A program made the translations under genes and the position numbers. From sequence record PZ026127.1: a DNA stretch of 64,000 bases; one strand, written 5' to 3'. How positions within the stretch are numbered: position 1 is the stretch's first letter; every line of letters starts with the position of its first letter. The DNA is from a phage. The notes under the pieces were generated by a model. The model was not told the origin of the DNA. It saw only the letters and a program-made list of their open reading frames with translations, and ran no database searches. Shown here in pieces: positions 1 to 28,945 of this stretch.

Positions 1-1463
1 CGAGTATCATTCGACAAGTGAATATAAGCCCAGAGACCATCGCAGGGACATTCGCTAACGCACCGATACATGAATATATTGCCGGAACAGCTCCGCGTCC
101 TAGCGACACCTACAGTTGCTCTCCTAACGGCATGATGTATTATAAAGACCGTGAAGGTGTGATTCCGACAGAAATCACAAAGGTATTCTTGCAGCGTAAA
201 GAACATAAAGGTTACATGCTTGCAGCTCAGCGTAATGGTGAGTTAATTAAAGAAGCATTGGAAAATCCTAATCTCTCGGTTGATAGTCCACTGGATATCG
301 ATTATCGTTTTGACTTCTCTGACGAAATCAAAGCCCAGATTAAAGCACTGTCAGCGCCTTCTTTAAGAGAAATGTTGAAGAAAGCCGAGCTCACTGAAGT
401 TGCAGGTAACACGGCTCAGATTAACCGTAAGTTGCTTATCAACTCCCTTTATGGTGCACTTGGTAACGTATGGTTCCGTTACTATGACCTCAGGAACGCA
501 ACTGCAATCACATTGTTTGGTCAAATGGCCCTCCAATGGATTGAACGTAAGGTTAACGAATATCTGAATAGCGTGTGTAAGACTGAAAATCAGAAGTTCG
601 TGCTCTATGGTGATACTGACTCCATTTATGTTAAGGCCGATGCAATCATCAATAAAGTAGGCGAAGATAAATTTCGTGACACTAACCACTGGGTCGACTT
701 CTTAGATAAATTTGCACGTGAACGTATGGAACCAGCTATTGATGCAGGCTTCCGTGAGATGTGCGAATACATGAACAACAAACAACACTTGATGTTCATG
801 GACCGAGAAGCTATCGCAGGTCCTCCACTTGGTTCTAAAGGTCTTGGTGGATTCTGGACAGGCAAGAAACGTTATGCACTGAACGTTTGGGACATGGAAG
901 GTACTCGTTATGCCGAACCGCACTTGAAAATCATGGGTCTCGAAACTCAGAAATCAAGTACACCTAAAGCAGTTCAGAAAGCTCTGAAGGAATGTATCCG
1001 TCGTATGCTTCAGGAAGGCGAGGCATCTTTGCAAGAATATTTCAAACAGTTTAATAAGGAATTTAACGAACTCGATTATGTAAGCATTGCAGCAGTATCC
1101 AGTGCTAACAACATCGAGAAATATAATGAAGGTGGATTCCCGGGTTCTAAATGTCCATACCACATCAAAGGTTGCTTAGCTTACATGCGTGCTTCTGCAG
1201 GTGATTTGACTATGCCTCGTATCGTTGATGGTGAAAAGGTATATGTACTGCCACTTAAAGAAGGCAACCCGTTTGGTGAAGCTTGTATGGCATGGCCGTC
1301 AGGTATTGAACTTCCGGTTCAGATTCGTGACCAAGTCCTCCGTTGGATGGACTACAACGTACTGTTCCAAAAGACCTTTATCAAACCTCTGACCGGTTTT
1401 ACTGAGTCTGCTAAAATCGACTACGAGAAAAAAGCAACATTATTTGATATGTTCGACTTTTAA
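1..1463 (+). CDS. 43: DNA polymerase gp43, C-terminal part (5' end lies outside window)
   Basis: ORF runs in frame from window edge; family-B polymerase motif YGDTDS and C-terminal LFDMFDF tail as in T4 gp43. Confidence 0.95.
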   Translation, partial: SIIRQVNISPETIAGTFANAPIHEYIAGTAPRPSDTYSCSPNGMMYYKDREGVIPTEITKVFLQRKEHKGYMLAAQRNGELIKEALENPNLSVDSPLDIDYRFDFSDEIKAQIKALSAPSLREMLKKAELTEVAGNTAQINRKLLINSLYGALGNVWFRYYDLRNATAITLFGQMALQWIERKVNEYLNSVCKTENQKFVLYGDTDSIYVKADAIINKVGEDKFRDTNHWVDFLDKFARERMEPAIDAGFREMCEYMNNKQHLMFMDREAIAGPPLGSKGLGGFWTGKKRYALNVWDMEGTRYAEPHLKIMGLETQKSSTPKAVQKALKECIRRMLQEGEASLQEYFKQFNKEFNELDYVSIAAVSSANNIEKYNEGGFPGSKCPYHIKGCLAYMRASAGDLTMPRIVDGEKVYVLPLKEGNPFGEACMAWPSGIELPVQIRDQVLRWMDYNVLFQKTFIKPLTGFTESAKIDYEKKATLFDMFDF

Positions 1464-1465
1464 GT

Positions 1466-1495
1466 GTTTACATACCACAAGGAACGTGGTAGTAT
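1466..1495 (+). promoter_or_regulatory. early sigma70-type promoter (GTTTAC -35, TAGTAT -10) upstream of imm
   Basis: GTTTAC at 1466-1471, 18 nt spacer, -10-like hexamer, then CCTATCAAC box and GAGGAA RBS. Confidence 0.5.
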
Positions 1496-1525
1496 CCTTC
1501 CTATCAACTACATGAGGAAATTACA

Positions 1526-1762
1526 ATGGAAGCTTTAATCGTTAGTGCTGGTGTTTTAGGATTCGGTTCTCTGGTTATTATGTTCATCGGTTACTTTTTA
1601 CCATGGATTCTGGCTCTTCTGCGAGGCACTCGTAGTAATGTCGGAATTTTCTTCCTTAATCTCCTGTTAGGCTGGACGATGATTGGTTGGGTAGTGGCTT
1701 TAATCTGGGCTATCGTCGCTGAACGTAAATCAAACGCACAAATCATTATTGTTAAGCAATGA
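1526..1762 (+). CDS. imm: Imm superinfection-immunity membrane protein
   Basis: 78 aa, two hydrophobic helices, position directly after gene 43 as in T4; RBS GAGGAA. Confidence 0.85.
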   Translation: MEALIVSAGVLGFGSLVIMFIGYFLPWILALLRGTRSNVGIFFLNLLLGWTMIGWVVALIWAIVAERKSNAQIIIVKQ

Positions 1763-1903
1763 AAATAATTATTTTATTTCTTATAATGACTGCCTTTACC
1801 ATTTATTGGGCAGTGGCAATTCCGCCAATGATTCCGACACTCATCATTGGATGGATTATTCTTATAGCACAAATTAAGTATAACTGTTTTAATTGAGGAT
1901 ATT

Positions 1904-2404
1904 ATGAAAAAGTTAATTATCGCAATGAGTATGCTCCTATCAGGTTGCGCGGTCCAATATGGTGATACAGTTTCGGCCGATGAAGTTGGTAAAGCTCGTA
2001 TCGCAGCTGAACAGAAACAATTCGATGGCGAAATGAAATTCCGTGCAGGTTCTGGACTTGTGTACACCCGAGCTAATAATCAATGCGGTAATAACTGTGC
2101 AAAATATGCTCAACAAGAAATCGAATTCCAACGTGAACAAGAGTCCAAGCGTGAAGCGGTACTAGCCAAACACCAGGCAGAAATGAAGCGTCAAGATGAT
2201 TTGTACAAAAAGCAGAAACTGTATGCGATGTGCGTAAACCATATCAATCTACAGATTTCCATCCACGAGGCTCGTTATTACGAAATGCTCGAAACCGAGA
2301 GCTTCGGTAAAGCTCGTGATTATAAGAAACAAATCGATAAGCTCAAGACCAAAGCACCGGCGGCAATAGAACAGTGTATTGAAATCGGTAAAGATAAGAT
2401 TTAA
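1904..2404 (+). CDS. predicted lipoprotein, function unknown
   Basis: N-terminal MKKLIIAMSMLLSGC lipobox followed by charged coiled-coil-like region; RBS GAGGA. Confidence 0.6.
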   Translation: MKKLIIAMSMLLSGCAVQYGDTVSADEVGKARIAAEQKQFDGEMKFRAGSGLVYTRANNQCGNNCAKYAQQEIEFQREQESKREAVLAKHQAEMKRQDDLYKKQKLYAMCVNHINLQISIHEARYYEMLETESFGKARDYKKQIDKLKTKAPAAIEQCIEIGKDKI

Positions 2405-2464
2405 GCAATACCAATTTATTAAAAATAGTGTATAATGTACCTACATTCACTTGAGGAACAGATA

Positions 2465-4138
2465 ATGAAAAAGGTTGTTATTTTAGGCGCGGGTCTTGGC
2501 TCACGGTTGTATCCAATTACCAACGAAATCCCGAAGGTACTGGTTAACTACAAACAACATACTGTATTAAAACATTTGTATGATTTGTATAGTAATCAAT
2601 CAGATGAAATTATTCTGGTTATTCACAGCAAATTTAACGACCTCGTTAAAGGCTATATTAAATCCATTAACATGATTAATAGTGATAAGCCTAAATTCAC
2701 TATTCGTAACGTTGATGTTGCCAATGGTTCGGCTCATGCTATCGATTGCATTGCCGAAGATATCATTGGGCACAATGTCTTGTTTAACTGGTGTGATATT
2801 ATTCCTGAAGGTCATAAAGTTGAGTGGGATAACGACTACTGTTATACCTATGGGACTGACTGTCGTTTTACATTTGAAGAACCGTACTTGCGTGAAATTG
2901 GTACCGGTGGTGGCGTAGTTGGCTTGTATCAGGTGGCTAATTGGACAGGTTTCGACCGTTCTAATTATGGTGAAGACCTTGCTGACAACCTGGATTCAAT
3001 GGTCCATTTGACTGAACGTAAGTTAGACTTTGTAGTTGATGTTGGTGACAAACTGAAACTGGCTAAGGCCCATGAAGATTCTGAAATTAACCGTGAATTT
3101 AATAAATTAGAGTTCACTGAGAATCTAGCTATTAAAGTACCTACAAACGAATTAGGTAAAGAAATCCAATCTAAAGAAATCAATTGGTACAATTCTATTG
3201 ATTCTGAATTCGTTCCTAGCATTGTAGACTTTGCTCCAGGTGAATTCATTAAAATGGAACGTATCTTTGGTCGAACCATGGCAGATGCCTACCGGTTTAT
3301 GTCTAAAGAAACTAAAGTCCTAATGGTTTATAAGGTTATTAGTGCATTACGTTCGTTCGGTGGAACTATCGATAATCCATCTGATGAGCAATGGTATTCT
3401 GATGTTAAGAAAGAAGTATTGGACAAGGTCCTTATTCGTAATGCTTCTATCGCCGGATTGATTGAAGGCTTTGCTCCACAGGGCATTACCCATGTTAACG
3501 ACTTTAAGGTAGGCGACCCTGAAAAACTTCTTCGCCATGCACTAGAAATTCTGTCTGAACATAAAGAACCGTACCAACTTATTCATGGCGACCCGCACTA
3601 CAGTAATATTATGTTGTCGGACGAAGGTGATATTAAAATCATCGACCCACGTGGTTATTTTGGTAATAGTTCTAAAGGCCCTGCGATTTATGATGAAGCT
3701 AAGGTGCTTTATTCTATCGATGGTTATGACAAATTTAACTCTGACCCTCTATGGGGTGGCTTAACTCGTAACGGAACTCGTGTATTCGTTGATATTGAAA
3801 AGGTTATGCCTTTAGATGATATTCCAATGTGTACATTTAAGCACAAGCTCTGGATTGCTGTTATCTGGATGGCATTGGCAGGTTACTTTAAAAATAACCC
3901 TCTGAAAGCTCTGGGTGCTTATTACAACGGTTTGTACCAACTGAGTGTGCTGCTGAAGCGACATCCTCGTAAGCGTAAGCTTATCACAGGTGAATTCGTT
4001 GATGAAGTTCGCGACCCTATCACGGCTCAAATTATCACTCGTTGTCCTGATAAGTGGGTTTTGCTTGACCAAGAAACTGGTGTAAAATATAAACCTACAG
4101 GTTCTACTGAACTCCACAAACAATGGAAGAAAATTTAA
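2465..4138 (+). CDS. bifunctional nucleotidyltransferase / kinase-like phosphotransferase (N-terminal sugar-1-P or phospho-alcohol nucleotidyltransferase domain, C-terminal APH/choline-kinase-like domain)
   Basis: N-terminus ILGAGLGSRLYPIT...PKVLV matches the G-x-G-[ST]-R-x-x-P-x-T nucleotidyltransferase signature; C-terminal HGDPHYSNIM...IKIIDPRG matches the catalytic loop of aminoglycoside/choline/anomeric-sugar kinases. Start set at ATG 2465 after GAGGAA; the track ATG at 2435 lies inside a TGTATAAT -10 box. Confidence 0.7.
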   Translation: MKKVVILGAGLGSRLYPITNEIPKVLVNYKQHTVLKHLYDLYSNQSDEIILVIHSKFNDLVKGYIKSINMINSDKPKFTIRNVDVANGSAHAIDCIAEDIIGHNVLFNWCDIIPEGHKVEWDNDYCYTYGTDCRFTFEEPYLREIGTGGGVVGLYQVANWTGFDRSNYGEDLADNLDSMVHLTERKLDFVVDVGDKLKLAKAHEDSEINREFNKLEFTENLAIKVPTNELGKEIQSKEINWYNSIDSEFVPSIVDFAPGEFIKMERIFGRTMADAYRFMSKETKVLMVYKVISALRSFGGTIDNPSDEQWYSDVKKEVLDKVLIRNASIAGLIEGFAPQGITHVNDFKVGDPEKLLRHALEILSEHKEPYQLIHGDPHYSNIMLSDEGDIKIIDPRGYFGNSSKGPAIYDEAKVLYSIDGYDKFNSDPLWGGLTRNGTRVFVDIEKVMPLDDIPMCTFKHKLWIAVIWMALAGYFKNNPLKALGAYYNGLYQLSVLLKRHPRKRKLITGEFVDEVRDPITAQIITRCPDKWVLLDQETGVKYKPTGSTELHKQWKKI

Positions 4139-4521
4139 TGTCACATCGAGTAGAAAATAAGCCTCATTTATGTTTTGACATCGATAACACAATCACGATT
4201 TGGAACCATGACCGTGATTATGAAAACTTTAAACCGGACACCGAAATGGTGTCCATGATTAATAAGCTTTATGATGAAGGATGCGAGATTACCTTGTTCA
4301 CTGCCCGTGGTATGACTTCATGCGGTCCAGGTCGAATCTTGGTTGAAGTAGTTCCTGCATTGGTTAAGAATCTTGAAAAGATTGGATTGAAATATCATAA
4401 TCTGCTTACACATAAGCCGAGTTATACTTTTATCATCGATGACCGAGCAATCCGTCCTGACCACTTTAAAGAAATGGTTCGTGAAGGAACTCTTGAAACC
4501 TATAAGGCATATCATCCGTGA
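4138..4521 (+). CDS. HAD-superfamily phosphatase-like protein
   Basis: Motif I FDIDNTIT (DxDxT), motif II TLFTAR, motif IV IIDDR; start ATG overlaps upstream stop (TAATG). Confidence 0.6.
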   Translation: MSHRVENKPHLCFDIDNTITIWNHDRDYENFKPDTEMVSMINKLYDEGCEITLFTARGMTSCGPGRILVEVVPALVKNLEKIGLKYHNLLTHKPSYTFIIDDRAIRPDHFKEMVREGTLETYKAYHP

Positions 4522-5054
4522 AACCAAAAATCATTGTTATCGACGGCCCGGATAATTCCGGGAAGTCTACTTTAATTGAATCGCTTTTATCTGATAAGAA
4601 ATATCGTCTTATCGATTTCCCTAAAAAGATTAATGGTAAGTGCATTTCGATAGGGACTGATAATGACAAGGCTTTAGTCGAGACGTTGTATAAGTTTTTA
4701 GACCCTAATTTTGTCTACATCTTAGACCGTGGATATCCTAGTAATATTGTTTACTCAGGATTCCTTCGTGGTGAAATGGACCCCTATGTAGAACTGGAAG
4801 ATTGGAAAGGGTTTAAATCTGAATTCAATATTATTGAGGTTATTTTAACCCGTAATCCACTGGATAAAGACTTTGAAGATGACCTTATTAAATTAACCAA
4901 AGATGAGTTCAACCTAACTATCCGGCAATATGAAACATGTTTTGAAAACGTGTTTAAAATCTTAAATCACGACGGCCATAATAACTTGCTTAACGTCGAT
5001 ATGGTAGAATTAAAACGTCTGAATGAATATATTGAAAATAAGGTGAATAAATGA
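4518..5054 (+). CDS. P-loop nucleotide kinase, thymidylate-kinase-like
   Basis: Walker A IVIDGPDNSGKST and TMK-like DRGYPSNIVYS motif; GTG start overlapping upstream stop. Confidence 0.6.
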   Translation: MKPKIIVIDGPDNSGKSTLIESLLSDKKYRLIDFPKKINGKCISIGTDNDKALVETLYKFLDPNFVYILDRGYPSNIVYSGFLRGEMDPYVELEDWKGFKSEFNIIEVILTRNPLDKDFEDDLIKLTKDEFNLTIRQYETCFENVFKILNHDGHNNLLNVDMVELKRLNEYIENKVNK

Positions 5055-5749
5055 AACACATTACCGCTGTTAGTTTTGAAAACGCGTTTAAGCAAATGAA
5101 CGAAGAAATCCTGGAAGCTCCACAGTTTGCAGTTGATTCTCGTATCGGCCGTTGTTATGAAATTGGTTCTGCTTCGGTAGAAGTACTGGATGCAAGCACC
5201 TATAAATTCACCGACCCTCGTATTAATCGTATCAACTATGATTATGCCGAATCTTTCTGGAAGTTTATGATTTCTGGTGGTACTGACGCCGCCGAAGCAT
5301 TTAAGGAATACCCTAATGTTGCTAAGTTCATTGATAAGCCGAAAAGTGACGTATTGCCTGCAAACTTCAACACTTTCTATGGACCTAGAATTGTGGCCCA
5401 ACTCCCAGCCTTACTTAAAGAGCTTAAAGAGAAGCCTAACTCAAGACGAGTTGTGTTCCAAATTCTCCAAGAACAAGACCAAGCCCTCCTTGATTCTGAC
5501 GAATCCTTAGAATATCCATGTACCGATTCGGTGACATATTATATTCGTGATGGACGTCTGTATGCACACACTCATATGCGTTCACAGAACTGTGCTATTG
5601 TTATGCAGCTGGATTTCTATCTGCAGGGTAAACTGATGGCCTTTATTGCTGAACAGTGTGGTGTTGGTCTGGGTACGTATTCCCATACTATGGTTAGTGC
5701 ACACGTATTTGAACGTGATTTTGACTACGTTCGAGGATTCCTGAAATGA
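5051..5749 (+). CDS. 42: dCMP hydroxymethylase (thymidylate-synthase fold)
   Basis: 232 aa; motif CTDSVTYYIRDGRLYAHTHMRSQN resembles T4 gp42; position between imm region and uvsX. Confidence 0.85.
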   Translation: MKHITAVSFENAFKQMNEEILEAPQFAVDSRIGRCYEIGSASVEVLDASTYKFTDPRINRINYDYAESFWKFMISGGTDAAEAFKEYPNVAKFIDKPKSDVLPANFNTFYGPRIVAQLPALLKELKEKPNSRRVVFQILQEQDQALLDSDESLEYPCTDSVTYYIRDGRLYAHTHMRSQNCAIVMQLDFYLQGKLMAFIAEQCGVGLGTYSHTMVSAHVFERDFDYVRGFLK

Positions 5750-6639
5750 GTTTGTTTATCGTTCCTATTTTCAGTATGCGTAGTTACGAAACAGGTGAAT
5801 ATGCCGTCCTTAAGGACGGCAATTTTCAACTCCATTTAAACCGTGCTTGCCCAGGTGATTATCTGGCTTATCCTAGAAATTCGAGCGATATCAAAGAATG
5901 CATTGAATTATTTCCTGAACTGAATTTTGTACCTCTTTGGTATAAAGAAAATGCTTATGAAACTCGTAAACATTTTTGGTCTGAAAATGAGTTCGTTGTT
6001 GATTCGTTAATCGAATACTATGACTGCTCAGGATTGGTAACCGATATCACAGGTTATGATGGTGCTCATACCGTACAATTCAACTTTAACATTACAATGG
6101 ACCCTGAAGTTCCTCGTTATTACATCGATGAGTTTATTGATACCGACGTGGGTTCAGTTGAACGTTCGATTTATACTACAGTCTTGAATCAATGTCAGAA
6201 AGACGTCCTGGTGTCACGAGGTGCGTCCTCTGATAAGATTTTTGTAGACCAAAAGGTAATTAATCCTGCAGTAATTGAGCGTTACTCTGAAGGTCTAGCG
6301 CCTATTAAAATTGATGGTATTTTCCATCCATTCCGTATTTCAGATAAATGCTACCAATTCGAAAGAGTTGTAGACCAGGCTGCGGCTGAGGGTTCTCGTC
6401 TTTACATCACCGACCCGAATGATTCATTTAAGCGTGAAGACTATCGTCCTGATGTAGAGATTATTAAATTCAAACCGAGTAAGGTTGAATATTATCAGAT
6501 TCTGAAATCAAGACCTCATATCATTTATCATGAGAATCCCGGTTTAGTATTCCATCCTGGTCTGGCTGAATTCATTTATTTCGGTGCCCACATCCATTCT
6601 GAGCACGAAATGCCAAGTTATGAGGACGTGGTCCTTTAA
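5746..6639 (+). CDS. unknown protein occupying the beta-glucosyltransferase position; candidate hmC-DNA transferase
   Basis: 297-aa ORF translationally coupled to gene 42 (ATGA overlap); no recognisable motif; assignment by synteny only. Confidence 0.4.
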   Translation: MSLFIVPIFSMRSYETGEYAVLKDGNFQLHLNRACPGDYLAYPRNSSDIKECIELFPELNFVPLWYKENAYETRKHFWSENEFVVDSLIEYYDCSGLVTDITGYDGAHTVQFNFNITMDPEVPRYYIDEFIDTDVGSVERSIYTTVLNQCQKDVLVSRGASSDKIFVDQKVINPAVIERYSEGLAPIKIDGIFHPFRISDKCYQFERVVDQAAAEGSRLYITDPNDSFKREDYRPDVEIIKFKPSKVEYYQILKSRPHIIYHENPGLVFHPGLAEFIYFGAHIHSEHEMPSYEDVVL

Positions 6640-6716
6640 CGCTGTAAATGTGAAGTGATATAATTACCCTATCTTAAAACGTGAGTAAAATATAATGATG
6701 CCTATGGAAAAATATA

Positions 6717-7889
6717 ATGTCTGATTTAAAATCCCGTTTGATTAAAGCTTCTACTTCTAAAATGACCGCCGACCTGACCAAATCTAAATTGTTTAATGGT
6801 CGTGACGAAGTTCCTACTCGTATCCCTATGCTGAATATTGCATTGGGCGGTGCGTTGAATGCAGGCTTACAATCAGGTTTGACAATCTTTGCTGCTCCAT
6901 CTAAACACTTTAAAACGTTGTTTGGACTTACCATGGTTGCGGCATATATGAAGAAATATCCAGACGCAATTTGTTTGTTCTATGACTCTGAGTTTGGTGC
7001 TTCAGAATCTTATTTCCGTTCGATGGGTGTTGATTTGGAACGTGTGGTTCATACACCAATCCAGTCAGTCGAACAGCTTAAAGTTGATATGACCAACCAG
7101 TTAGAAGAAATTACTCGTGGCGAAAAGGTTATTATCTTTATCGACTCCATTGGTAACACTGCTTCTAAGAAAGAAACCGAAGATGCTTTGAACGAGAAAG
7201 TTGTAGGTGATATGACTCGTGCTAAATCACTGAAATCTCTGTTCCGTATCGTAACACCTTATCTGACTATCAAAGATATCCCTTGTGTAGCAATCAACCA
7301 CACGGCTATGGAAATTGGTGGAATGTATCCTAAAGAGATTATGGGTGGTGGTACTGGTATTCTGTACTCTGCTTCTACCGTGTTCTTTATCTCTAAACGT
7401 CAGGTTAAAGATGGTACCGAGCTCACTGGTTATGACTTCACACTGAAGGCTGAGAAATCTCGTACGGTTAAAGAGAAATCAACGTTCCCTATCACCGTTA
7501 ACTTCGAAGGTGGTATCGACCCATTCAGTGGATTGCTTGAAATGGCTACTGATATTGGCTTTGTCGTGAAACCTAAAGCTGGCTGGTATAATCGTGCATT
7601 CCTTGACGAAACCACAGGCGAAATGGTTCAAGAAGAAAAAGCATGGCGTGCTAAAGCTACCGATTGTGTCGAGTTCTGGGGACCGCTGTTTAAACATGCC
7701 CCGTTCCGTGAAGCAATCGAGAATAAGTATAAGCTCGGTGCAATTAATTCTATTAAAGAAGTTGACGATGCAGTGAACGACCTTATTAACTCTCGTGTCT
7801 CTAAGAACGTTGCTGTTAAATTAGGTGGTAATGCCCAAAGCGCCGCTGATATCGAAAACGATTTGGAAGAGATGGATTTAGATGACTGA
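6717..7889 (+). CDS. uvsX: UvsX recombinase (RecA-like)
   Basis: 390 aa, N-terminus MSDLKSRLIKASTSK and overall strong match to T4 UvsX. Confidence 0.95.
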   Translation: MSDLKSRLIKASTSKMTADLTKSKLFNGRDEVPTRIPMLNIALGGALNAGLQSGLTIFAAPSKHFKTLFGLTMVAAYMKKYPDAICLFYDSEFGASESYFRSMGVDLERVVHTPIQSVEQLKVDMTNQLEEITRGEKVIIFIDSIGNTASKKETEDALNEKVVGDMTRAKSLKSLFRIVTPYLTIKDIPCVAINHTAMEIGGMYPKEIMGGGTGILYSASTVFFISKRQVKDGTELTGYDFTLKAEKSRTVKEKSTFPITVNFEGGIDPFSGLLEMATDIGFVVKPKAGWYNRAFLDETTGEMVQEEKAWRAKATDCVEFWGPLFKHAPFREAIENKYKLGAINSIKEVDDAVNDLINSRVSKNVAVKLGGNAQSAADIENDLEEMDLDD

Positions 7890-8211
7890 TTTATCTGATT
7901 TAGATAATTTCGTTAAAGATACCGAAGAGGGTCCTAGTGACCCTCGTTATTATGAGAAATCATTAGATATAATCCGTAAGTCAATGGGATCGGTTAAGCA
8001 GGAAATTATGCTTACTTTACCCGATGGCACTGCTCACATCGTTTATGTGATGAATATTGTTATTGAGAAAGATGGAAAAGTGTCGGTTGATTTCGGAACA
8101 CCTTCCGAAGACCGAAAAGAAGAGCTGGCGCTTCATGTAGAAAAATGTGTTACAATGCAAATACAAGAAGAACTGGATAAAATTAAATCTAAGAGGTGGT
8201 GGAAGTGGTAG
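7882..8211 (+). CDS. 40: gp40-like protein (head vertex assembly helper)
   Basis: 109 aa ORF between uvsX and 41, as T4 gene 40. Confidence 0.6.
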   Translation: MTDLSDLDNFVKDTEEGPSDPRYYEKSLDIIRKSMGSVKQEIMLTLPDGTAHIVYVMNIVIEKDGKVSVDFGTPSEDRKEELALHVEKCVTMQIQEELDKIKSKRWWKW

Positions 8212-9635
8212 AAACTATTTTGGCTCAACTGCTAGGCAATAGTGATTATTTCACTAAGGTCTGGCCTTATATGAATGATTCTTATTTTGACCAGGGTCCT
8301 GCAAAGACCCTTTTCAAAGAAATTAAAAAACATGTCAATGAATATAATGCAGTGCCTTCTAAGAACGCATTGAGCATTGCATTAGATAACAGTACGCTTT
8401 CAGAAGTTGAACACCAAGGCGCTAAAGAGCTTTTAAGTTCGCTGAATGCCGGACCTGAAGACCAAGAATGGTTGGTTAAAGAGACGGAGAAATACGTTCA
8501 GAAAGCAGCGATGTATAATGCAACTTCAAAAATCATTGAAATCCAAACTAATGCCGACCTTCCGGTTGAGCAACAAAATAGAAAACTTCCAGGTATTGGT
8601 GCTATTCCGGATATCATGCGTGATGCATTATCGATTTGTTTCGATTCTGAATTAGGTCATGACTGGATGGATGACTATGAAGAACGATTCAAAAGTTATT
8701 CCGATAAAGCACGTAAGGTTCCATTCCGTCTTAATATTCTGAATAAGATTACCAAGGGTGGTGCTGAGTTTGGTACTGAAAACGTATTGTTGGCAGGAAC
8801 AAACGTAGGTAAGTCTCTTGGTCTTTGTTCATTGGCTGCTGATTACCTTCAATCCGGTTACGATGTTCTTTATATCTCCATGGAGATGGCAGAGGAAGTA
8901 TGTGCTAAGCGTATCGATGCCAACCTTCTGGACGTGTCGCTGGATGATATCGATGATGGTCACGTCTCGTGGCCTGAATATAAAGCTAAGATGGATAAAT
9001 GGCGTTCAACTGCTACCTTGGGTCGTTTAAAGATTAAACAGTACCCTACCGGTGGCGCTAATGCCGATACATTCCGTGCATTATTAAACGAATACAAGCT
9101 CAAACAAAACTTTGTCCCACAGGTCGTTATCGTTGACTACTTGGCTATCTGTGCATCGTCTCGTACGAAAGTTTTCTCTGAAAACAGTTACGGATTGATT
9201 AAGATGGTTGCTGAAGAACTACGTGGACTTGCAGTAGAGAAGAAATTACTGTTGTGGACTGCAGCCCAGACTACTCGTGGTGCGAACGTTGCAGCCGAAA
9301 TCGATATGGCCGATATTGCTGAATCCTTTGGTATTGCACATACTGCAGACTTCATGTTGGGTGTGGTCGAGACAGAAGAGTTCGCTCAGATGGGTATGCA
9401 GATGGTTAAGCAGCTTAAATCTCGTTATGGCGATAAGAGCTACTACAACAAATTTAAGATTGGCGTTAAGAAAGGAAATCAACGTTGGTACGAAGTTGAA
9501 GATGATTCCAACCCAGGCCCAGTGAACACTGTTCGTGAGGCTACAGGTGAGATGAATCGCCAGGCCGAGGTCAATCGACAGACGCGTGTTAATAGAAGTG
9601 ATTTGGACGATTTAGCAGCATCTATCAAATTTTAA
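8205..9635 (+). CDS. 41: gp41 replicative DNA helicase (DnaB-like)
   Basis: Matches T4 gp41 from the MVE(T/I)IL N-terminus onwards; Walker A GTNVGKS; GTG start. Confidence 0.95.
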   Translation: MVETILAQLLGNSDYFTKVWPYMNDSYFDQGPAKTLFKEIKKHVNEYNAVPSKNALSIALDNSTLSEVEHQGAKELLSSLNAGPEDQEWLVKETEKYVQKAAMYNATSKIIEIQTNADLPVEQQNRKLPGIGAIPDIMRDALSICFDSELGHDWMDDYEERFKSYSDKARKVPFRLNILNKITKGGAEFGTENVLLAGTNVGKSLGLCSLAADYLQSGYDVLYISMEMAEEVCAKRIDANLLDVSLDDIDDGHVSWPEYKAKMDKWRSTATLGRLKIKQYPTGGANADTFRALLNEYKLKQNFVPQVVIVDYLAICASSRTKVFSENSYGLIKMVAEELRGLAVEKKLLLWTAAQTTRGANVAAEIDMADIAESFGIAHTADFMLGVVETEEFAQMGMQMVKQLKSRYGDKSYYNKFKIGVKKGNQRWYEVEDDSNPGPVNTVREATGEMNRQAEVNRQTRVNRSDLDDLAASIKF

Positions 9636-9656
9636 GGAGCTTCGGCTCCTTTTTTG
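9636..9656 (+). terminator. intrinsic terminator (GGAGC-UUCG-GCUCC hairpin plus U tract)
   Basis: ggagcttcggctcc followed by ttttttgtttt directly after gene 41 stop. Confidence 0.7.
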
Positions 9657-9665
9657 TTTTTAAGG

Positions 9666-9694
9666 GTTTACATCTCCTGTAGGCGTGATACTAT
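9666..9694 (+). promoter_or_regulatory. early promoter (GTTTAC ... TGaTACTAT)
   Basis: -35 GTTTAC, 17 nt spacer, extended -10, followed by CCTATCAAC box. Confidence 0.5.
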
Positions 9695-9718
9695 AGACCT
9701 ATCAACTTGGAGAACAAA

Positions 9719-10036
9719 ATGAAAACCATCGACTGTAAAGCAGAATATAAAGTGTATTACCATGGAAGTTGTAGTGTCGCTAATATCGGTAATATGCTTT
9801 GTCCTCCTGAGGAAACAGGAGTTCTGTCTGAAACCGGTCGTAAGAAAAACCTAAATCGTGTGTTCTTTACTGAAGATATCGGTTTGGCTAAGATTTATGC
9901 TGGACGTGCAGCTCGTTCAGTGGGAGGAGAACCCCGTCTTTATCGTGTAATTGCTCCGGTAGATGTGGTTTGTTTAAATGATACTAAAGGCGCTACAGTT
10001 TATCATGCTGAATGGGCCTTCTGTGAGGAAATCTAA
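9719..10036 (+). CDS. small ADP-ribosyltransferase-like protein (Arr-like candidate)
   Basis: 105 aa; YYHGS near N-terminus, later RVFFTED and RLYRVIAP segments line up by eye with the H-G-T / Y / acidic pattern of rifampin ADP-ribosyltransferase-type enzymes. Confidence 0.4.
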   Translation: MKTIDCKAEYKVYYHGSCSVANIGNMLCPPEETGVLSETGRKKNLNRVFFTEDIGLAKIYAGRAARSVGGEPRLYRVIAPVDVVCLNDTKGATVYHAEWAFCEEI

Positions 10037-10231
10037 ATGTCTGAATCAATTAAAGTAAAATTTGTCGGCCATTTCGCCAACGGTGATACCGCTACCAAAG
10101 AAGCTTCAGTGCGTGAAAACGATATTGTGTGGGTGGCTACCCAATTCGCTGAAGTCAATAGTATTCTAGTCAAGGCCTATGTCGACGACGTAGAAGTTTA
10201 TGAACATGATGCTCGCATTGAGGAAATCTAA
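10037..10231 (+). CDS. hypothetical small early protein
   Basis: 64 aa ORF immediately after upstream stop, early-gene orientation. Confidence 0.5.
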   Translation: MSESIKVKFVGHFANGDTATKEASVRENDIVWVATQFAEVNSILVKAYVDDVEVYEHDARIEEI

Positions 10232-10372
10232 ATGGAAGAATTTGAATGTGTAGTATGTGGTTGTTCAGTCTATGAAGACCAAGCGGTATTTGATGCTTGG
10301 GATAACGCAACCTGTTTAGACTGTGACAGCGAATTCGAAGAAATTGCTCATAAACATGAAGGTGAGGAATAA
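10232..10372 (+). CDS. hypothetical zinc-ribbon peptide
   Basis: 46 aa with CVVCGC ... CLDCD pair of Cys motifs; tightly packed between neighbours. Confidence 0.4.
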   Translation: MEEFECVVCGCSVYEDQAVFDAWDNATCLDCDSEFEEIAHKHEGEE

Positions 10373-10612
10373 ATGAATATTACCTTAATGAAACCAACTC
10401 CTAGTTCTTTTTGGAATAAATCTTTTGGTAAGCATAACATGTTTATCCAACGTACCGTAAACAACTGGGAACTAGTTCTTTCAGCGGGCCACAACGATTA
10501 TGAACAAGAATATGTAGAGTTCTTCGAATTTCCTGTGAAGCCCACTAAGCGTCAGATTCGTCAGACAAAACGTAAATTCCGTAAAATTTATTTGGAAGAT
10601 TCATTAAAATAA
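10373..10612 (+). CDS. hypothetical small early protein
   Basis: 79 aa ORF with GAGGAA RBS. Confidence 0.5.
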   Translation: MNITLMKPTPSSFWNKSFGKHNMFIQRTVNNWELVLSAGHNDYEQEYVEFFEFPVKPTKRQIRQTKRKFRKIYLEDSLK

Positions 10613-13320: not shown

Positions 13321-13839
13321 ATGGCATACTTTAACGAATGCGCAAACCTGATTGATGGTGTTGATAAAGCTGAGGAAGCTTATTTTAATGCTCTGATTCA
13401 TGAAGATAAAGACCCTCTGCAAGTTATGCTTGATATGCAGAAATCTTTACAGGTTCGTTTGGCTAATGACCGTGAATATTGTTACCATCCGGACAAATTA
13501 GCGACAGCCGGTGATGTTGTTGCTTGGATGCGTGAACAGAAAGATTGTATTGACGATGAATTCCGTGAACTTCTGACTTCCCTCGGTGAAATGTCTAAAG
13601 GTGAGAAAGATGCATCTGCTGTATGGAAAAAATGGAAAGCCCGTTACCCGGAAGCACAAGCCAAACCTATTTCAGAAATGTCTCCTGAAGACCAGCTTGA
13701 AATTAAATTTGAACTCATTGATATTATGCACTTCGTATTCAATATGGCTATTGGCCTGAATATGTCGGCTGAAGAAATGTTTAAACTTTATTATCTGAAG
13801 AATGCTGAAAACTTTGCAAGGCAGGACCGTGGCTATTAA
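13321..13839 (+). CDS. 56: dCTP pyrophosphatase (dCTPase/dUTPase, MazG-like)
   Basis: 172 aa, matches T4 gp56 size and sequence character; located between 61 and soc. Confidence 0.85.
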   Translation: MAYFNECANLIDGVDKAEEAYFNALIHEDKDPLQVMLDMQKSLQVRLANDREYCYHPDKLATAGDVVAWMREQKDCIDDEFRELLTSLGEMSKGEKDASAVWKKWKARYPEAQAKPISEMSPEDQLEIKFELIDIMHFVFNMAIGLNMSAEEMFKLYYLKNAENFARQDRGY

Positions 13840-24117: not shown

Positions 24118-25935
24118 ATGATTAAGAATGAAATTAAAGTACTGTCCGACATTGAACATATCAAAAAACGTAGTGGGATGTATATTGGCTCAAGTGCTAA
24201 TGAAGCTCACAGTCGATTCCTGTTTGGTAATTTTACACAGGTAAACTATGTTCCTGGACTGGTTAAATTAATTGATGAAATCATTGATAACTCTGTCGAT
24301 GAAGCTATTCGTACCAATTTTAAATTCGCAAATAAAATTGATGTTCAAATTAAGAATAACCAGGTTTCAGTTTCTGATAATGGTCGTGGTATTCCACAAG
24401 CAATGGTCACCGACCAAAATGGTGAACAGATTCCAGGTCCTGTAGCTGCATGGACTATTCCAAAGGCAGGTGGTAACTTTGGAGATGACGCTGAGCGTAA
24501 GACAGGCGGCATGAATGGTGTCGGTAGTAGTTTAACTAATATCTTCTCTGTTTTGTTCACAGGCATCACCTCTGATGGTGAGAATGAGATTACTGTTAAC
24601 TGTTCAAACGGAATGGAAAACAAAGGTTGGTCTACTAAGAAATCTAAAGGTAAGGGTACTTCGGTTATATTCACCCCAGACTTTAATCATTTCGAAGAAA
24701 ATAGCCTGTCACAAATTTATCTGGATATTACATTAGACCGATTGCAAACTCTGGCCGTAGTTTATCCTGATATTCAATTTACTTTTAATGGTAAAAAAGT
24801 AGATGGCAACTTTAAAAAGTATGCTAAGCAATTTGGTGAAGACTTTGTAATCCAAGAAACCGATAATGTTTCGATGGCATTTACTCCTTCTCCGGATGGA
24901 TTCCGTCAACTGACTTATGTAAACAATATCCACACCAAGAATGGTGGCCACCACGTTGAATGCGTATTCGATGATATTTGTGAACACCTTCTGCCAGGCA
25001 TTAAAAAGAAATACCGTGGAATTGAAGTAACTAAAGCTCGTGTTAAAGAATGCCTTACGATGGTGATGTTCATTCGTGATATGAGCAACATGCGTTTTGA
25101 TTCACAGACTAAAGAACGTTTGACCTCTCCTTTTGGTGAGATTCGCAATCATATCCAAATTGATGCTAAGAAAATTGCTCAAGCCATTCTTAAAGTTGAT
25201 GGGTTGATTATGCCTATCGTTGAAGCTGCTTTAGCACGTAAATTAGCAGCTGAAAAGGCTGCCGAAACTAAAGCCGCTAAGAAAGCTTCTAAAGCCAAGG
25301 TCCATAAGCATATTAAAGCTAACCTATACGGCAAAGATGCTGATACAACCCTGTTCCTAACCGAAGGTGATTCCGCTATGGGTCCTTTCATTGAAGTTCG
25401 TAATAAAGACCTTCAAGGTGGTTACCCATTGCGTGGTAAGGTTATGAATACCTGGGGAATGACAGCAACAGATATCATGAAGAACAAGGAACTATTTGAT
25501 ATCTGTGCAATCACTGGACTTGTTATTGGCGAACCTGCAGAGAAAACTAACTATCGTAATATCGCTATTATGACTGATGCTGATGTGGATGGTACTGGTT
25601 CGATTTATCCATCATTGCTAGCCTTCTTTAGTCAATGGCCCGAATTGTTCGAACAAGGCCGAGTACGGTTCTGTAAAACTCCGGTGATTATTGCCCAGGT
25701 TGGTAAAGAACAGGAATGGTTCTATGACGTTCCTAGTTATACCAAAGCTAAGGACTCTCTACCAAAACATTCTATTCGGTACATCAAAGGACTAGGTTCT
25801 CTTGAGAAAGCTGAATATCGTCGAATGATTCAAGACCCTAAATTTGATGTGGTTCAATTACCTGAAGATTGGAAAGAACAGTTCGAAATGCTCCTTGGTA
25901 ATGACCCACAACTCCGTAAGGCCTGGATGTCGTAA
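24118..25935 (+). CDS. 39: DNA topoisomerase II large subunit (GyrB-like ATPase), uninterrupted 39/60-equivalent
   Basis: 605 aa single ORF with GHKL ATPase N-terminus and Toprim-like C-terminal half. Confidence 0.9.
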   Translation: MIKNEIKVLSDIEHIKKRSGMYIGSSANEAHSRFLFGNFTQVNYVPGLVKLIDEIIDNSVDEAIRTNFKFANKIDVQIKNNQVSVSDNGRGIPQAMVTDQNGEQIPGPVAAWTIPKAGGNFGDDAERKTGGMNGVGSSLTNIFSVLFTGITSDGENEITVNCSNGMENKGWSTKKSKGKGTSVIFTPDFNHFEENSLSQIYLDITLDRLQTLAVVYPDIQFTFNGKKVDGNFKKYAKQFGEDFVIQETDNVSMAFTPSPDGFRQLTYVNNIHTKNGGHHVECVFDDICEHLLPGIKKKYRGIEVTKARVKECLTMVMFIRDMSNMRFDSQTKERLTSPFGEIRNHIQIDAKKIAQAILKVDGLIMPIVEAALARKLAAEKAAETKAAKKASKAKVHKHIKANLYGKDADTTLFLTEGDSAMGPFIEVRNKDLQGGYPLRGKVMNTWGMTATDIMKNKELFDICAITGLVIGEPAEKTNYRNIAIMTDADVDGTGSIYPSLLAFFSQWPELFEQGRVRFCKTPVIIAQVGKEQEWFYDVPSYTKAKDSLPKHSIRYIKGLGSLEKAEYRRMIQDPKFDVVQLPEDWKEQFEMLLGNDPQLRKAWMS

Positions 25936-25979
25936 TAAATATGTATGGTACTAATTGGTGCCATACAAAAGGAGACTTT

Positions 25980-26141
25980 ATGAGAAAGTACTGGGTTACG
26001 CTCGTCACCGGTGAATACGGTTATATCTGGACTGATACTAGACCTCAGTTTGCAGAATACGTGACTATTACAGTCGAGACATGGGACGGCGAAGTTTACC
26101 AAACCCGCGGACAAGTCTATAAGGTCGATTCAAGTAACTAA
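25980..26141 (+). CDS. hypothetical small protein
   Basis: 53 aa from ATG 25980 after AGGAG. Confidence 0.4.
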   Translation: MRKYWVTLVTGEYGYIWTDTRPQFAEYVTITVETWDGEVYQTRGQVYKVDSSN

Positions 26142-26144
26142 TAA

Positions 26145-26164
26145 GGGCCTTCGGGCCCTTTTCG
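26145..26164 (+). terminator. intrinsic terminator (GGGCC-UUCG-GGCCC plus U tract)
   Basis: gggccttcgggccc tttt. Confidence 0.7.
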
Positions 26165-26213
26165 GGGTTTACAAAGACCTGTGGTTATGATAGGATTATT
26201 TAGAGGTGAGAAT

Positions 26214-26537
26214 ATGATTATGCAAGATAACAGTATAGTGAACACTGACAACCTGGCTCTATCCTTTATGGAAACAGCCATTCGTAACTGTAAGGACGAA
26301 GGAGTAGTGACTACAAGCGGTAAGGGACTTGAATACCTTAAGGCTGTAAAATCTATTGCCTTAAAGATTAAAGATAACCAGGCGCTCTCTCCTGTTGTCC
26401 AGGAAAAGGTTTTAGAGATAATGTATCGCCACAGAGAGCACAAAAGTACAATGGGTTCTATGAGAAGAATTCTGGCTGAACTAGGTTCTACCAGAGAATA
26501 TGTTCAACATGAGGTAGTTAAAAATGACAAACTTTAA
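26214..26537 (+). CDS. hypothetical protein
   Basis: 108 aa from ATG 26214 after GAGGTGAGAA. Confidence 0.45.
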   Translation: MIMQDNSIVNTDNLALSFMETAIRNCKDEGVVTTSGKGLEYLKAVKSIALKIKDNQALSPVVQEKVLEIMYRHREHKSTMGSMRRILAELGSTREYVQHEVVKNDKL

Positions 26538-26727
26538 AGTGAATATTGATTTGTTCGATAAAGCCGTCCATAAAGAATTCCGGTTAATCCAACGATTTTT
26601 TGATATCAATGCGGCTGAGGATTTTAAAGAACGCTTTAAAGAAATCAGATATAAAATACTCAACGACATCGCTACTAAGGACGAGCTCCTTGAAGTGGCA
26701 GACATTTTTAAACGTAACCTGAATTGA
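26524..26727 (+). CDS. small protein upstream of rIIA (rIIA.1 position)
   Basis: 67 aa ORF. Confidence 0.45.
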   Translation: MTNFKVNIDLFDKAVHKEFRLIQRFFDINAAEDFKERFKEIRYKILNDIATKDELLEVADIFKRNLN

Positions 26728-26734
26728 GAAAAAT

Positions 26735-28945
26735 ATGATTATTGAAACCGAAAAAGAACAAATCATTGGTAATGGTGCTAAGTCCACAGGCTTTACTATT
26801 CAGGCATCGCCTAAGGTCTTTAAAATTTTGTCATCAGACCTTTATAGTAATAAAGTACGTGCCGTAGTTCGTGAACTAATTACCAACATGATTGATGCCC
26901 ATATTCTAAATGGTAATAAAGAACGTTGGAAAGTACAGGTTCCTGGTAAACTAGACCCTCGCTTTGTATGTCGTGATTTCGGTCCGGGTATGAGTGATTT
27001 CCAAATTCGTGGTGATGAAAACGAAACAGGTTTGTACAACTCTTATTTCGCATCATCCAAAACGGCTTCTAACGATTTCATCGGTGGCTTTGGCCTTGGT
27101 TCAAAATCTCCGTTCAGTTATACCGAAACGTTTAATATCACCTCATGGCACAATGGCGAAGTTCGCGGTTATGTAGCATATATGGATGGTGATGGCCCGC
27201 AGATTAAACCTACTTTCGTAGAACCTATGCAGCCAGGTGATAAAACAGGTATCGAAATCACGGTTCCTGTTGATGAAGAAGATTTCCGTAAGTTTGAAAC
27301 TGAAGTTCGTTATATCATGCGGCCTTTCATTGGTCTTGGTGATGTAGACGGTGTTGAAGTTGATTATTTCCCTGAATTTGACGATTACCATCCTGTAACC
27401 ACTACAAATTATGGCAGCTTCGAACGTTCAGGACTTTATGCAGTTTATGGTGGTATTGTTTATCCATTGGATTCTGCCTATAATAAAGGCACATGGATGC
27501 GTACTCGCCATGATGTAGTTTATATTAAGTTCCCTATGGGTTCACTGGATATTGCTCCGTCTCGTGAAGTGTTGTCTCTTGATAAACGTACGATGGAAAA
27601 TATTGCAACCCGTATCGAAGCACTGGATGCAGTGGTCTTTAAAAACGATACACAGGAATGGGTTGAATCTGATAATCCACGCCATGTTTATCGTGACCTT
27701 TCTAACCTTGGTTACAGTGCTCGTGACTATCTTACCAAAAAAGGTGGAACTAGCCTGTTTACTACAGAAAAATTGACATATGAGAAATTATACCAGCGTT
27801 ATACCCTTCAAAACGACCTTATTAATTTAGGTGTGGTTTACGAAGTCGTTTCAGACCCACGTTTGAAACGAATTAAGTCAAGTGGTAATACTTCTTCGGT
27901 AGCAGGACTTAGTAATTTATTAGGCATTAATAAGAAAGAAATCCATGTTGTTTATGATGATGAAAAAGGTCGTGTGCCATTAGTTCGAGGTCTTTGGGCT
28001 CTGGCAATGGACAACAGTGCTTCGGCTAAGAAAATTGTTAAAGAGAACAATATTCCTAAATACGGAACTGACCTTATTTTTGTCGACCCAAATTCAATGT
28101 TGCAAATGCAACAACTTGAAAAGGTTAAAGAACTTTTTAAAGGTGACACAATTCATTTTTATAAAGTCTCTGAACTGAATAAAATTGTTAAGCCATGGAT
28201 TCCGGTTACTGTCCGTTCATCAGAACCGCGTCCTAAAACACCGAGTGCTTATCGTTGGTTCATTAAAGACGGGCGCTGGCAACAAGAGACCATGTATTTG
28301 ACTGCTGCCGAAGCAGAAGAAATTACAGGTTATGTTCTGTTTGGCAGTCGTTCTGATATTATGGGAATGGATGAAGCTTATGGTATCTTTGACATCAATA
28401 CCACTACCATGTGTCGTATGGCTAATTTGATTGGTGCTACCGAATTCCATATCATTCGCCCTCAGATTGCCAAAAAGATTAAAAAGTTAGGCCAATGCGA
28501 ATGCTTGATGGAAGCTACATTAGAAGCTTATGCTGAAGCCTTAGACGCGGTAGATGTTGATGACTACCTTGGTAGCAATACTCGAGCTCGGTATTACCTT
28601 GAAATCATTGCTAAGTTCCCTCAGCTTAATTTCATGACCAAGTATTTCAGTGATAAGCCGGTAACTGAAGCATATACTCGTCTGAGTAATTTCTATGATA
28701 TATTCCGTTATATGAATTTCCATGGTTATATCACTGATGATAAGCTTTCCGTTATCAAGAAAATTTGTAACAATACTTTTTTTAAGTTGACTGATAATGC
28801 TTCAAGCAACAATGATAAAATGACTGTACAGTTTGAATCTGATTACCATTTAGTTTCGGACTACATGTATCGTCGTGGAACATCCATTACCGAGGCTTCT
28901 GTAGCTCAAATTGTTAAATTCATGAAAGCCGTGGAAGCGGCTTAA
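26735..28945 (+). CDS. rIIA: RIIA lysis-inhibition/membrane integrity protein
   Basis: 736 aa; N-terminal GHKL-like segment; size and order as T4 rIIA. Confidence 0.9.
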   Translation: MIIETEKEQIIGNGAKSTGFTIQASPKVFKILSSDLYSNKVRAVVRELITNMIDAHILNGNKERWKVQVPGKLDPRFVCRDFGPGMSDFQIRGDENETGLYNSYFASSKTASNDFIGGFGLGSKSPFSYTETFNITSWHNGEVRGYVAYMDGDGPQIKPTFVEPMQPGDKTGIEITVPVDEEDFRKFETEVRYIMRPFIGLGDVDGVEVDYFPEFDDYHPVTTTNYGSFERSGLYAVYGGIVYPLDSAYNKGTWMRTRHDVVYIKFPMGSLDIAPSREVLSLDKRTMENIATRIEALDAVVFKNDTQEWVESDNPRHVYRDLSNLGYSARDYLTKKGGTSLFTTEKLTYEKLYQRYTLQNDLINLGVVYEVVSDPRLKRIKSSGNTSSVAGLSNLLGINKKEIHVVYDDEKGRVPLVRGLWALAMDNSASAKKIVKENNIPKYGTDLIFVDPNSMLQMQQLEKVKELFKGDTIHFYKVSELNKIVKPWIPVTVRSSEPRPKTPSAYRWFIKDGRWQQETMYLTAAEAEEITGYVLFGSRSDIMGMDEAYGIFDINTTTMCRMANLIGATEFHIIRPQIAKKIKKLGQCECLMEATLEAYAEALDAVDVDDYLGSNTRARYYLEIIAKFPQLNFMTKYFSDKPVTEAYTRLSNFYDIFRYMNFHGYITDDKLSVIKKICNNTFFKLTDNASSNNDKMTVQFESDYHLVSDYMYRRGTSITEASVAQIVKFMKAVEAA

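Follow-up and report, generated by a model that had tools for sequence, protein, structure and literature searches.

A block of genes in phage RB69 was proposed in 2018 to make uridine diphosphate (UDP)-arabinose for arabinosylated cytosine, and the modified base was first reported as arabosyl-5-hydroxymethylcytosine (arabosyl-hmC; Thomas et al., PMC6024577). The arabinosyl-5-hydroxycytosine pathway was characterised in 2025-2026 (Lee et al. 2026, PMC13326640; He et al. 2026; Mahler et al. 2025). According to Lee et al. 2026, a paper that also gives findings of the other two studies, a thymidylate-synthase homolog converts deoxycytidine monophosphate (dCMP) to 5-hydroxy-dCMP using flavin and O2, RB69 gp48 being experimentally shown to be such a flavin-dependent synthase; the 'hmC' assignment of RB69 was corrected by nuclear magnetic resonance and mass spectrometry; and the DNA of RB69 and DLP3 is described as carrying mono-, di- or tri-D-arabinofuranosyl 5-hydroxycytosine. 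Here we describe the corresponding block of PZ026127.1, a phage record analysed over one stretch of 64,000 nucleotides (the window).

The sugar branch of the known pathway runs from arabinose-5-phosphate to arabinose-1,5-bisphosphate, then to arabinose-1-phosphate and UDP-arabinofuranose (Lee et al. 2026, PMC13326640). For HY126, the same paper reports AfhE as both the arabinose-5-phosphate kinase and the UDP-arabinose pyrophosphorylase, and AfhF as a Mg-dependent phosphatase acting between AfhE's two steps. Dhakaviruses are named there among the genera with a syntenic cluster. Earlier, JS98 had been noted to have a gene 42 homolog but no glucosyltransferases, and it had been asked how JS98 and RB69 manage without these enzymes (Petrov et al. 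2010).

The five-gene cassette

By its sequence the window comes from a T4-like coliphage of the Dhakavirus group; its stretch 1500-6700 is matched at 96-98% nucleotide identity by the Dhakavirus genomes QL01, WG01, MX01, Bp7 and the JS98 group. Five genes between imm and uvsX concern us here:

2465-4138 (mechanical open reading frame 2435-4138), + strand: fusion of NTP_transferase and APH-kinase domains (Pfam), AfhE-like
4138-4521 (mechanical open reading frame 4123-4521), + strand: HAD-family phosphatase, AfhF-like by orthology and motifs
4518-5054, + strand: P-loop kinase of thymidylate-kinase fold, RB69 gp45-like
5051-5749, + strand: thymidylate-synthase-family protein, assigned as 5-hydroxy-dCMP synthase by orthology and diagnostic residues
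5746-6639, + strand: predicted DNA glycosyltransferase of GT-B fold, 297 amino acids, RB69 gp46:47 ortholog

All five proteins have orthologs in the gene 43-uvsX block of RB69, of HY126, a close relative of RB69, and of Serratia phage 92A1. We conclude that the block 2465-6639 is, very probably, the Dhakavirus version of the arabinosyl-5-hydroxycytosine DNA hypermodification cassette, known as gp45-55 in RB69, Afh in HY126 and gp76-83 in DLP3. The argument combines orthology, diagnostic residues, folds, gene order, operon structure and gene absences, all observed in our analysis, with enzyme activities taken from the literature on the RB69, HY126 and DLP3 orthologs.

The protein at the position of T4 gene 42 (5051-5749) is decisive for the nature of the base. 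Pfam places it among the thymidylate synthases (4.8e-14), and it is 79% identical to RB69 gp48, 79% to its HY126 counterpart and 81% to that of 92A1, versus 25% over 159 amino acids to T4 gp42. When compared with PDB sequences by phmmer, it matched 9IQU/9IQC/9IR2, whose sequence is that of the HY126-type enzyme, at E=1.5e-125, and T4 gp42 (1B49) at E=4.7e-6. Replacement of ThyA Asp169 by Asn is diagnostic of hydroxylases (Lee et al. 2026, PMC13326640). In our alignment (A1), the D169 position reads RSQN in the window protein as in RB69, HY126 and 92A1, RSND in T4 gp42 and RSCD in E. coli ThyA. The same alignment places an Asp at N177 (MQLD), a Glu at L143 and the conserved catalytic Cys146 (LEYPC) in the window protein. 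The length of the E. coli ThyA sequence used, and its residues 143, 146, 169 and 177, agree with the published numbering. Judged on these comparisons, the open reading frame is an ortholog of the 5-hydroxy-dCMP synthase and no dCMP hydroxymethylase. As the synthase is a gp48 ortholog with the diagnostic Asn at D169, the acceptor base is predicted to be 5-hydroxycytosine rather than hmC.

The 297-residue protein encoded directly downstream has no Pfam, NCBIfam or PDB sequence match. Its model, built from a 48-sequence alignment, has a predicted local distance difference test (pLDDT) score of 95 and a predicted template modelling (pTM) score of 0.89, and adopts a clear GT-B glycosyltransferase fold. 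It matches the frameshifted RB69 gp47/gp46 at 70% and 63% identity in the respective halves, the HY126 protein at 67% and that of 92A1 at 45%. The protein is an RB69 gp46:47 ortholog, and gp46:47 is the putative first arabinosyltransferase for 5-hydroxycytosine in DNA. A tblastn search for T4 beta-gt homologs, run on the window and on QL01 (1-140 kb), which together cover a whole Dhakavirus genome, found none. The QL01 annotation shows no alpha-gt from gp47 to gp55; no search with an alpha-gt sequence was made.

The three remaining proteins include the candidate donor-making enzymes. The fusion protein matches NTP_transferase in its N-terminal part (Pfam, 2.5e-8) and APH in its C-terminal part (1.3e-5), and is homologous over its full length to RB69 gp52:53 (42% identity) and to the HY126 (43%) and 92A1 (47%) proteins. 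The nucleotidyltransferase motif GAGLxxRLYPIT..PK (GxGxxRLxPxT..PK) and the kinase motifs HGDPxxSN and IDPRGYFG are conserved. NCBIfam matches to MurU, GlmU and RmlA were all far under the family cut-offs. An APH-like domain of this fusion type is reported as the arabinose-5-phosphate kinase (PMC13326640). We therefore regard the window protein as AfhE-like, and predict that it converts arabinose-5-phosphate to arabinose-1,5-bisphosphate, and arabinose-1-phosphate plus uridine triphosphate (UTP) to UDP-arabinofuranose.

The HAD protein is 63% identical to RB69 gp51, 64% to the HY126 protein and 67% to that of 92A1, and it conserves the motifs FDxDxT, TARG and IIDD. Among PDB entries it matches 9IQW (E=3e-54) and 1XPJ (E=1.4e-11); its nearest NCBIfam family is TIGR01689, a capsule biosynthesis phosphatase, at 4.4e-14 and under the cut-off of that family. 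It is predicted to be an AfhF-like phosphatase producing arabinose-1-phosphate from arabinose-1,5-bisphosphate. The P-loop kinase (4518-5054), 37% identical to its RB69 ortholog, 36% to that of HY126 and 39% to that of 92A1, has a thymidylate-kinase fold and is probably a pyrimidine nucleotide kinase. A role as sugar kinase was considered and rejected on this fold, together with the presence of an APH-like kinase domain in the fusion itself.

An earlier, sequence-only reading of this stretch had seen here an accessory block in which a kinase, a phosphatase and a nucleotidyltransferase supply an activated, non-glucose donor such as a pentose, to be transferred to hmC in place of T4-style glucosylation. 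Its open reading frames are real and lie where it put them, on the + strand, and the route it outlined agrees with the published pathway (PMC13326640). The transfer of a sugar to a modified cytosine is retained, on 5-hydroxycytosine as the predicted base instead of hmC; the 'gene 42/dCMP hydroxymethylase' label is abandoned, given 25% identity to T4 gp42 versus 79% to RB69 gp48. That the 297-residue protein lacks a glucosyltransferase signature holds for its sequence and fails for its modelled fold, and the transferase role implied for it is supported by the GT-B model and by the orthology with RB69 gp46:47. Of the two kinases which that reading listed, the predicted sugar kinase is the C-terminal domain of the fusion and not the separate P-loop protein.

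Put together, the following scheme can be drawn. What the enzymes do in this phage, the supply of arabinose-5-phosphate by the host, the addition of a single arabinose and the part played by the P-loop kinase are inferred in it. On the base side, the gp56 dCTPase (13321-13839) would remove dCTP and supply dCMP, which the ThyA homolog (5051-5749) would hydroxylate at C5 with O2 and flavin. The resulting 5-hydroxy-dCMP would be brought to the triphosphate by the phage dNMP kinase gp1 and host NDK, a branch to which the P-loop kinase (4518-5054) may contribute, and the phage polymerase gp43 would incorporate the modified nucleotide instead of dC. On the sugar side, arabinose-5-phosphate would have to be supplied by KdsD/GutQ of the host, as the phage has no isomerase of its own. 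The kinase half of the fusion, its APH-like C-terminal domain, would phosphorylate this sugar at C1 to the 1,5-bisphosphate, the HAD phosphatase (4138-4521) would remove the 5-phosphate, and the N-terminal nucleotidyltransferase domain would join the arabinose-1-phosphate with UTP into UDP-arabinofuranose. Finally, the GT-B enzyme (5746-6639) would transfer arabinofuranose to 5-hydroxycytosine residues of replicated DNA, at their 5-OH. Since a single transferase is encoded, the product is predicted to be a mono-arabinoside. Cytosine is mono-pentosylated in Thanatos, also a single-transferase phage (Lee et al. 2026, PMC13326640).

Each of the five genes overlaps the next by 1-4 nt, at 4138, 4518-4521, 5051-5054 and 5746-5749, as expected of an operon with translational coupling. 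The true start of the fusion gene is most likely 2465 rather than 2435, because a GAGGAA Shine-Dalgarno sequence precedes it, QL01 is annotated in this way and the homolog alignments begin there. For the HAD gene, 4138 is most likely the true start rather than 4123, on account of the TAATG overlap with the upstream gene, as in RB69.

A TATAAT hexamer lies at 2431-2436, inside the 60-bp gap separating the lipoprotein gene from the fusion start at 2465, and the mechanical start at 2435 lands within it. This element suggests that the cassette has its own promoter. The promoter and terminator scan found no enrichment compared to shuffled sequences.

Comparison with related cassettes

RB69 and HY126 (Mosigvirus) share with the window the gene 43-uvsX slot, the five core proteins, the diagnostic residues of the synthase, and gp56 and gp1; the gp1 dNMP kinase lies outside the window and is present in the near-identical QL01. 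Four of their genes are missing from the window. Searches by tblastn of the window and of QL01 1-140 kb returned neither the arabinose-5-phosphate isomerase (RB69 gp55; best E 1.6 in the 64-kb window) nor the gp3-type second arabinosyltransferase (366 amino acids, GT4-like, searched with RB69 gp3), nor the U32-peptidase-like gp50, nor gp49. The kinase gene also sits upstream of the synthase gene in the window, and after the transferase gene in RB69. As to the products, RB69 DNA is mono- and di-arabinosylated and DLP3 bears a tri-arabinoside, whereas a mono-arabinoside only is predicted for the window phage.

In RB69 the second arabinosyltransferase (ORF003c) is encoded between gp39 (topoisomerase) and rIIA. 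The corresponding interval of the window, 25935-26735, is ~800 bp long and has small open reading frames only; there is therefore no room for a gp3-type gene.

In Klebsiella phage vB_Kpn_F48 (Marfavirus), the order fusion, HAD, P-loop kinase, synthase, transferase is the same and the slot contains no isomerase. Identity of the window proteins to those of F48-group Klebsiella phages is 80% for the fusion, 86% for the synthase and 69% for the transferase. F48 differs by keeping, between kinase and synthase, a gp50-like 'peptidase' and a gp49-like open reading frame, both lost in the window. Among the four layouts that we read (RB69/HY126, 92A1, F48 and the window), the Dhakavirus cassette is the most reduced. 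More distant in host and lineage, Shewanella phage Thanatos can be likened by description: its TH1_060/062/063 include a nucleotidyltransferase-phosphotransferase fusion (561 amino acids), a ThyA homolog (237 amino acids) and a 300-residue protein of glycosyltransferase fold (PMC12838424), and it too has a single transferase (PMC13326640).

Both gp50 and gp49 are present in the RB69, HY126, 92A1 and F48 cassettes (RB69 locus 9120-10525; F48 locus 3907-5309). As they are missing from the Dhakavirus cassette, they appear dispensable for the core pathway. RlhA and TrhP, the enzymes studied in Kimura 2017 and Lauhon 2019, are members of the U32 family, so that the role of gp50 may be worth a look. 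These two papers, on rRNA and tRNA base hydroxylation, are among those cited by Lee et al. 2026 (PMC13326640).

Record counts in the phage collection were 346 for the synthase, 353 for the first transferase and 368 for the fusion, with almost identical numbers per host genus (Escherichia 177, Acinetobacter 57, Klebsiella 25-26, Shigella 15, among others). These three genes travel together. Fewer records have the isomerase (276) or the gp3-type transferase (212); in either set 137 are from Escherichia, and no Klebsiella phage was among the isomerase-positive records. From the difference in counts, ~40 Escherichia and 26 Klebsiella phages have the core cassette and lack both the isomerase and the gp3-type gene.

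The proteins of the region are not equally close to their RB69 counterparts, with identities of 82% for the polymerase and 90% for UvsX, 79% for the synthase, 67-70% for the transferase, 63% for the HAD protein, 42% for the fusion and 37% for the kinase. On these figures the cassette is a mosaic.

A second unevenness is seen at shorter range. Compared to QL01, neighbouring proteins are 99-100% identical, the HAD phosphatase (4138-4521) is 91% identical and the gp56 dCTPase (13321-13839) 78%. These low-identity patches point to recent recombination with other Dhakavirus lineages.

Well-known systems help to place the predicted chemistry. T4, with gp42, alpha-gt and beta-gt, adds a hydroxymethyl group by folate one-carbon transfer and uses host UDP-glucose, whereas in the window phage a flavin/O2 hydroxylation is predicted, and the phage would build its own UDP-arabinofuranose. 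The sequence-only reading had compared the block to HldE/GmhB and AmgK/MurU. The first comparison is sound as pathway logic, with phosphorylation at C1, removal of the distal phosphate by a HAD enzyme and nucleotidylation by a bifunctional enzyme; the window fusion has NTP_transferase and APH domains, no PfkB or CTP_transf_like, and is not homologous to HldE. The second is sound for the domain families, AmgK being an APH-like kinase and MurU an NTP_transferase. Neither comparison extends to family membership, as the matches stayed under the cut-offs, and the window differs from both systems in having a single polypeptide, nucleotidyltransferase first and kinase next, and a product destined for DNA rather than for the cell envelope.

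Other readings of the cassette

Several points weigh against the arabinosyl-5-hydroxycytosine assignment. In the literature searched, no chemical analysis of the virion DNA of a Dhakavirus (JS98, IME08, Bp7) was found. The cassette is without the arabinose-5-phosphate isomerase found in RB69, HY126, DLP3 and 92A1, a gene that is not universal in the cluster. Identity to characterised orthologs does not exceed 42-47% for the fusion and 37% for the P-loop kinase, compared to 82-90% for the flanking core, so that a substrate drift in these two proteins is conceivable. The P-loop kinase has no published role, and the first transferase (RB69 gp46:47, DLP3 gp79) is presented as a hypothesis, not marked as experimentally confirmed (PMC13326640). 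Lastly, what is said here of He et al. 2026 and of Mahler et al. 2025 follows the account in Lee et al. 2026 (PMC13326640).

The alternative that stands up best, although we consider it unlikely, keeps 5-hydroxycytosine and changes the sugar: the diverged fusion would activate another abundant pentose phosphate, for example ribose-5-phosphate or a xylulose or xylose derivative, and the DNA would bear a cytosine glycoside not yet described. It would fit the identity of the fusion, far under the genome average, and the lack of an isomerase homolog in the window and QL01. In its favour, TH1_063 of Thanatos, picked by structural similarity to glycosyltransferase folds, is reported to have UDP-xylose pyrophosphorylase activity in vitro (PMC12838424), and Rhizobium phage RL38J1 attaches hexoses to 5-hydroxycytosine (PMC13326640). 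However, the transferase and the phosphatase, both of which must recognise the sugar, share 63-70% identity with their RB69 and HY126 counterparts. Moreover, arabinose-5-phosphate is made through KdsD for 3-deoxy-D-manno-octulosonic acid (Kdo) in all Gram-negative hosts. The Marfavirus F48 has no isomerase in its slot either, and yet Marfaviruses are grouped with the genera synthesising 5-hydroxydeoxycytidine (5hodC; PMC13326640).

A T4-type dCMP hydroxymethylase, with a cassette that puts a non-glucose sugar or a phospho-alcohol on hmC, is very improbable. Gene position and thymidylate-synthase family membership (Pfam 4.8e-14) would lead one to expect it; the Asp at N177 and the acidic residue at L143 are shared with T4 gp42, and RB69 itself was originally reported as arabosyl-hmC (PMC6024577). 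This last support has gone with the correction of the RB69 assignment (PMC13326640), and the enzyme is far nearer to those shown making 5-hydroxy-dCMP (79-81%) than to T4 gp42 (25%), with Asn and not Asp at D169, the residue reported as diagnostic of hydroxylases.

That the fusion and the HAD protein serve host-surface sugar metabolism (capsule or lipopolysaccharide), with no link to DNA, is barely credible: TIGR01689, the deposition of PDB 9IQW as 'Capsule biosynthesis protein' and some GenBank records in which the fusion is named GlmU or 'capsular polysaccharide biosynthesis protein' suggest it, but all those family matches are under the cut-offs. Besides, both genes lie in one overlapping, same-strand series with those of the 5-hydroxy-dCMP synthase and the GT-B transferase and are found together with these two in ~350 phage genomes, and HY126 AfhE and AfhF are reported to make UDP-arabinose for DNA modification (PMC13326640).

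Neighbouring genes and significance

The genes that surround the cassette, and the gp56 gene, are as follows:

18-1463, + strand: DNA polymerase gp43, C-terminus
1526-1762, + strand: imm
1759-1896, + strand: gp42.1-like membrane open reading frame, 45 amino acids
1904-2404, + strand: lipoprotein-like open reading frame, 166 amino acids, lipobox LLSGC
6717-7889, + strand: uvsX
13321-13839, + strand: gp56 dCTPase/dUTPase (tblastn with QL01 gp56, 78% identity over 173 amino acids; named in the QL01 annotation)

Every described gene of window 1-9000 is on the + strand, hundreds of phage genomes encode close homologs of each open reading frame of the accessory block, and alc is likewise encoded within the window. 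The earlier count of four genes plus the 297-residue protein is right for those genes and leaves out a fifth small open reading frame, at 1759-1896, also located between imm and the block. This 45-residue hydrophobic frame overlaps the imm stop codon, and its homologs (53-60% identity) are RB69 ORF054c, '42.1' of VR7 and the T4 42-imm intercistronic region, which makes it a conserved micro-ORF.

The lipoprotein-like protein (1904-2404) is coiled-coil-rich and belongs to phrog_1754. It has no homolog in the RB69, HY126, 92A1 or T4 regions compared. Gaprivervirus VR7 encodes a 50%-identical homolog in the same slot, in the order pol, imm, 42.1, lipoprotein, uvsX, and this pol-uvsX slot contains no ThyA homolog, transferase or sugar genes. 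In Gelderlandvirus STP4-a, a weaker homolog lies next to two glucosyltransferases and a true dCMP hydroxymethylase; further T4-like genera, several in number, also have weaker homologs. Membership in the pathway, as the sequence-only reading had it, was rejected on the VR7 and STP4-a cases. The gene is a neighbour of imm. As a guess, the protein may act in superinfection exclusion or have an envelope function. Gapriverviruses are reported to have denA, denB, alc and dCTPase homologs, and a base modification of unknown kind was suggested for them (Nikulin et al. 2021).

The system is already known, through the RB69 proposal of 2018, the characterisation of 2025-2026 and the naming of the Dhakaviruses, and the question of Petrov et al. 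2010 on JS98 and RB69, phages without glucosyltransferases, is now answered. Public annotations of the cassette are misleading: the HAD protein is labelled 'phosphoheptose isomerase', the synthase 'thymidylate synthase' or 'dCMP hydroxymethylase', the transferase 'RNA polymerase binding protein' and the lipoprotein 'capsid and scaffold protein'. In Dhakaviruses, 'thymidylate synthase' and 'dCMP hydroxymethylase' should be read as 5-hydroxy-dCMP synthase, and the neighbours called 'phosphoheptose isomerase', 'thymidylate kinase' and 'hypothetical protein' as the predicted UDP-arabinofuranose pathway and DNA arabinosyltransferase.

Dhakaviruses are common among therapeutic coliphage candidates. 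The predicted arabinosyl-5-hydroxycytosine DNA would influence how they stand up to restriction, to CRISPR and to type IV (GmrSD/BrxU-like) defences, and would also affect the ease with which they are sequenced and engineered. The reduced set suggests, as a modest comparative point, that the core modification can do without the phage isomerase, gp50, gp49 and a second transferase. On one possible reading, the five genes would be the minimal set sufficient for glycosyl-5-hydroxycytosine, with its sugar precursor strictly dependent on host KdsD/GutQ, and this host dependency could then be exploited.

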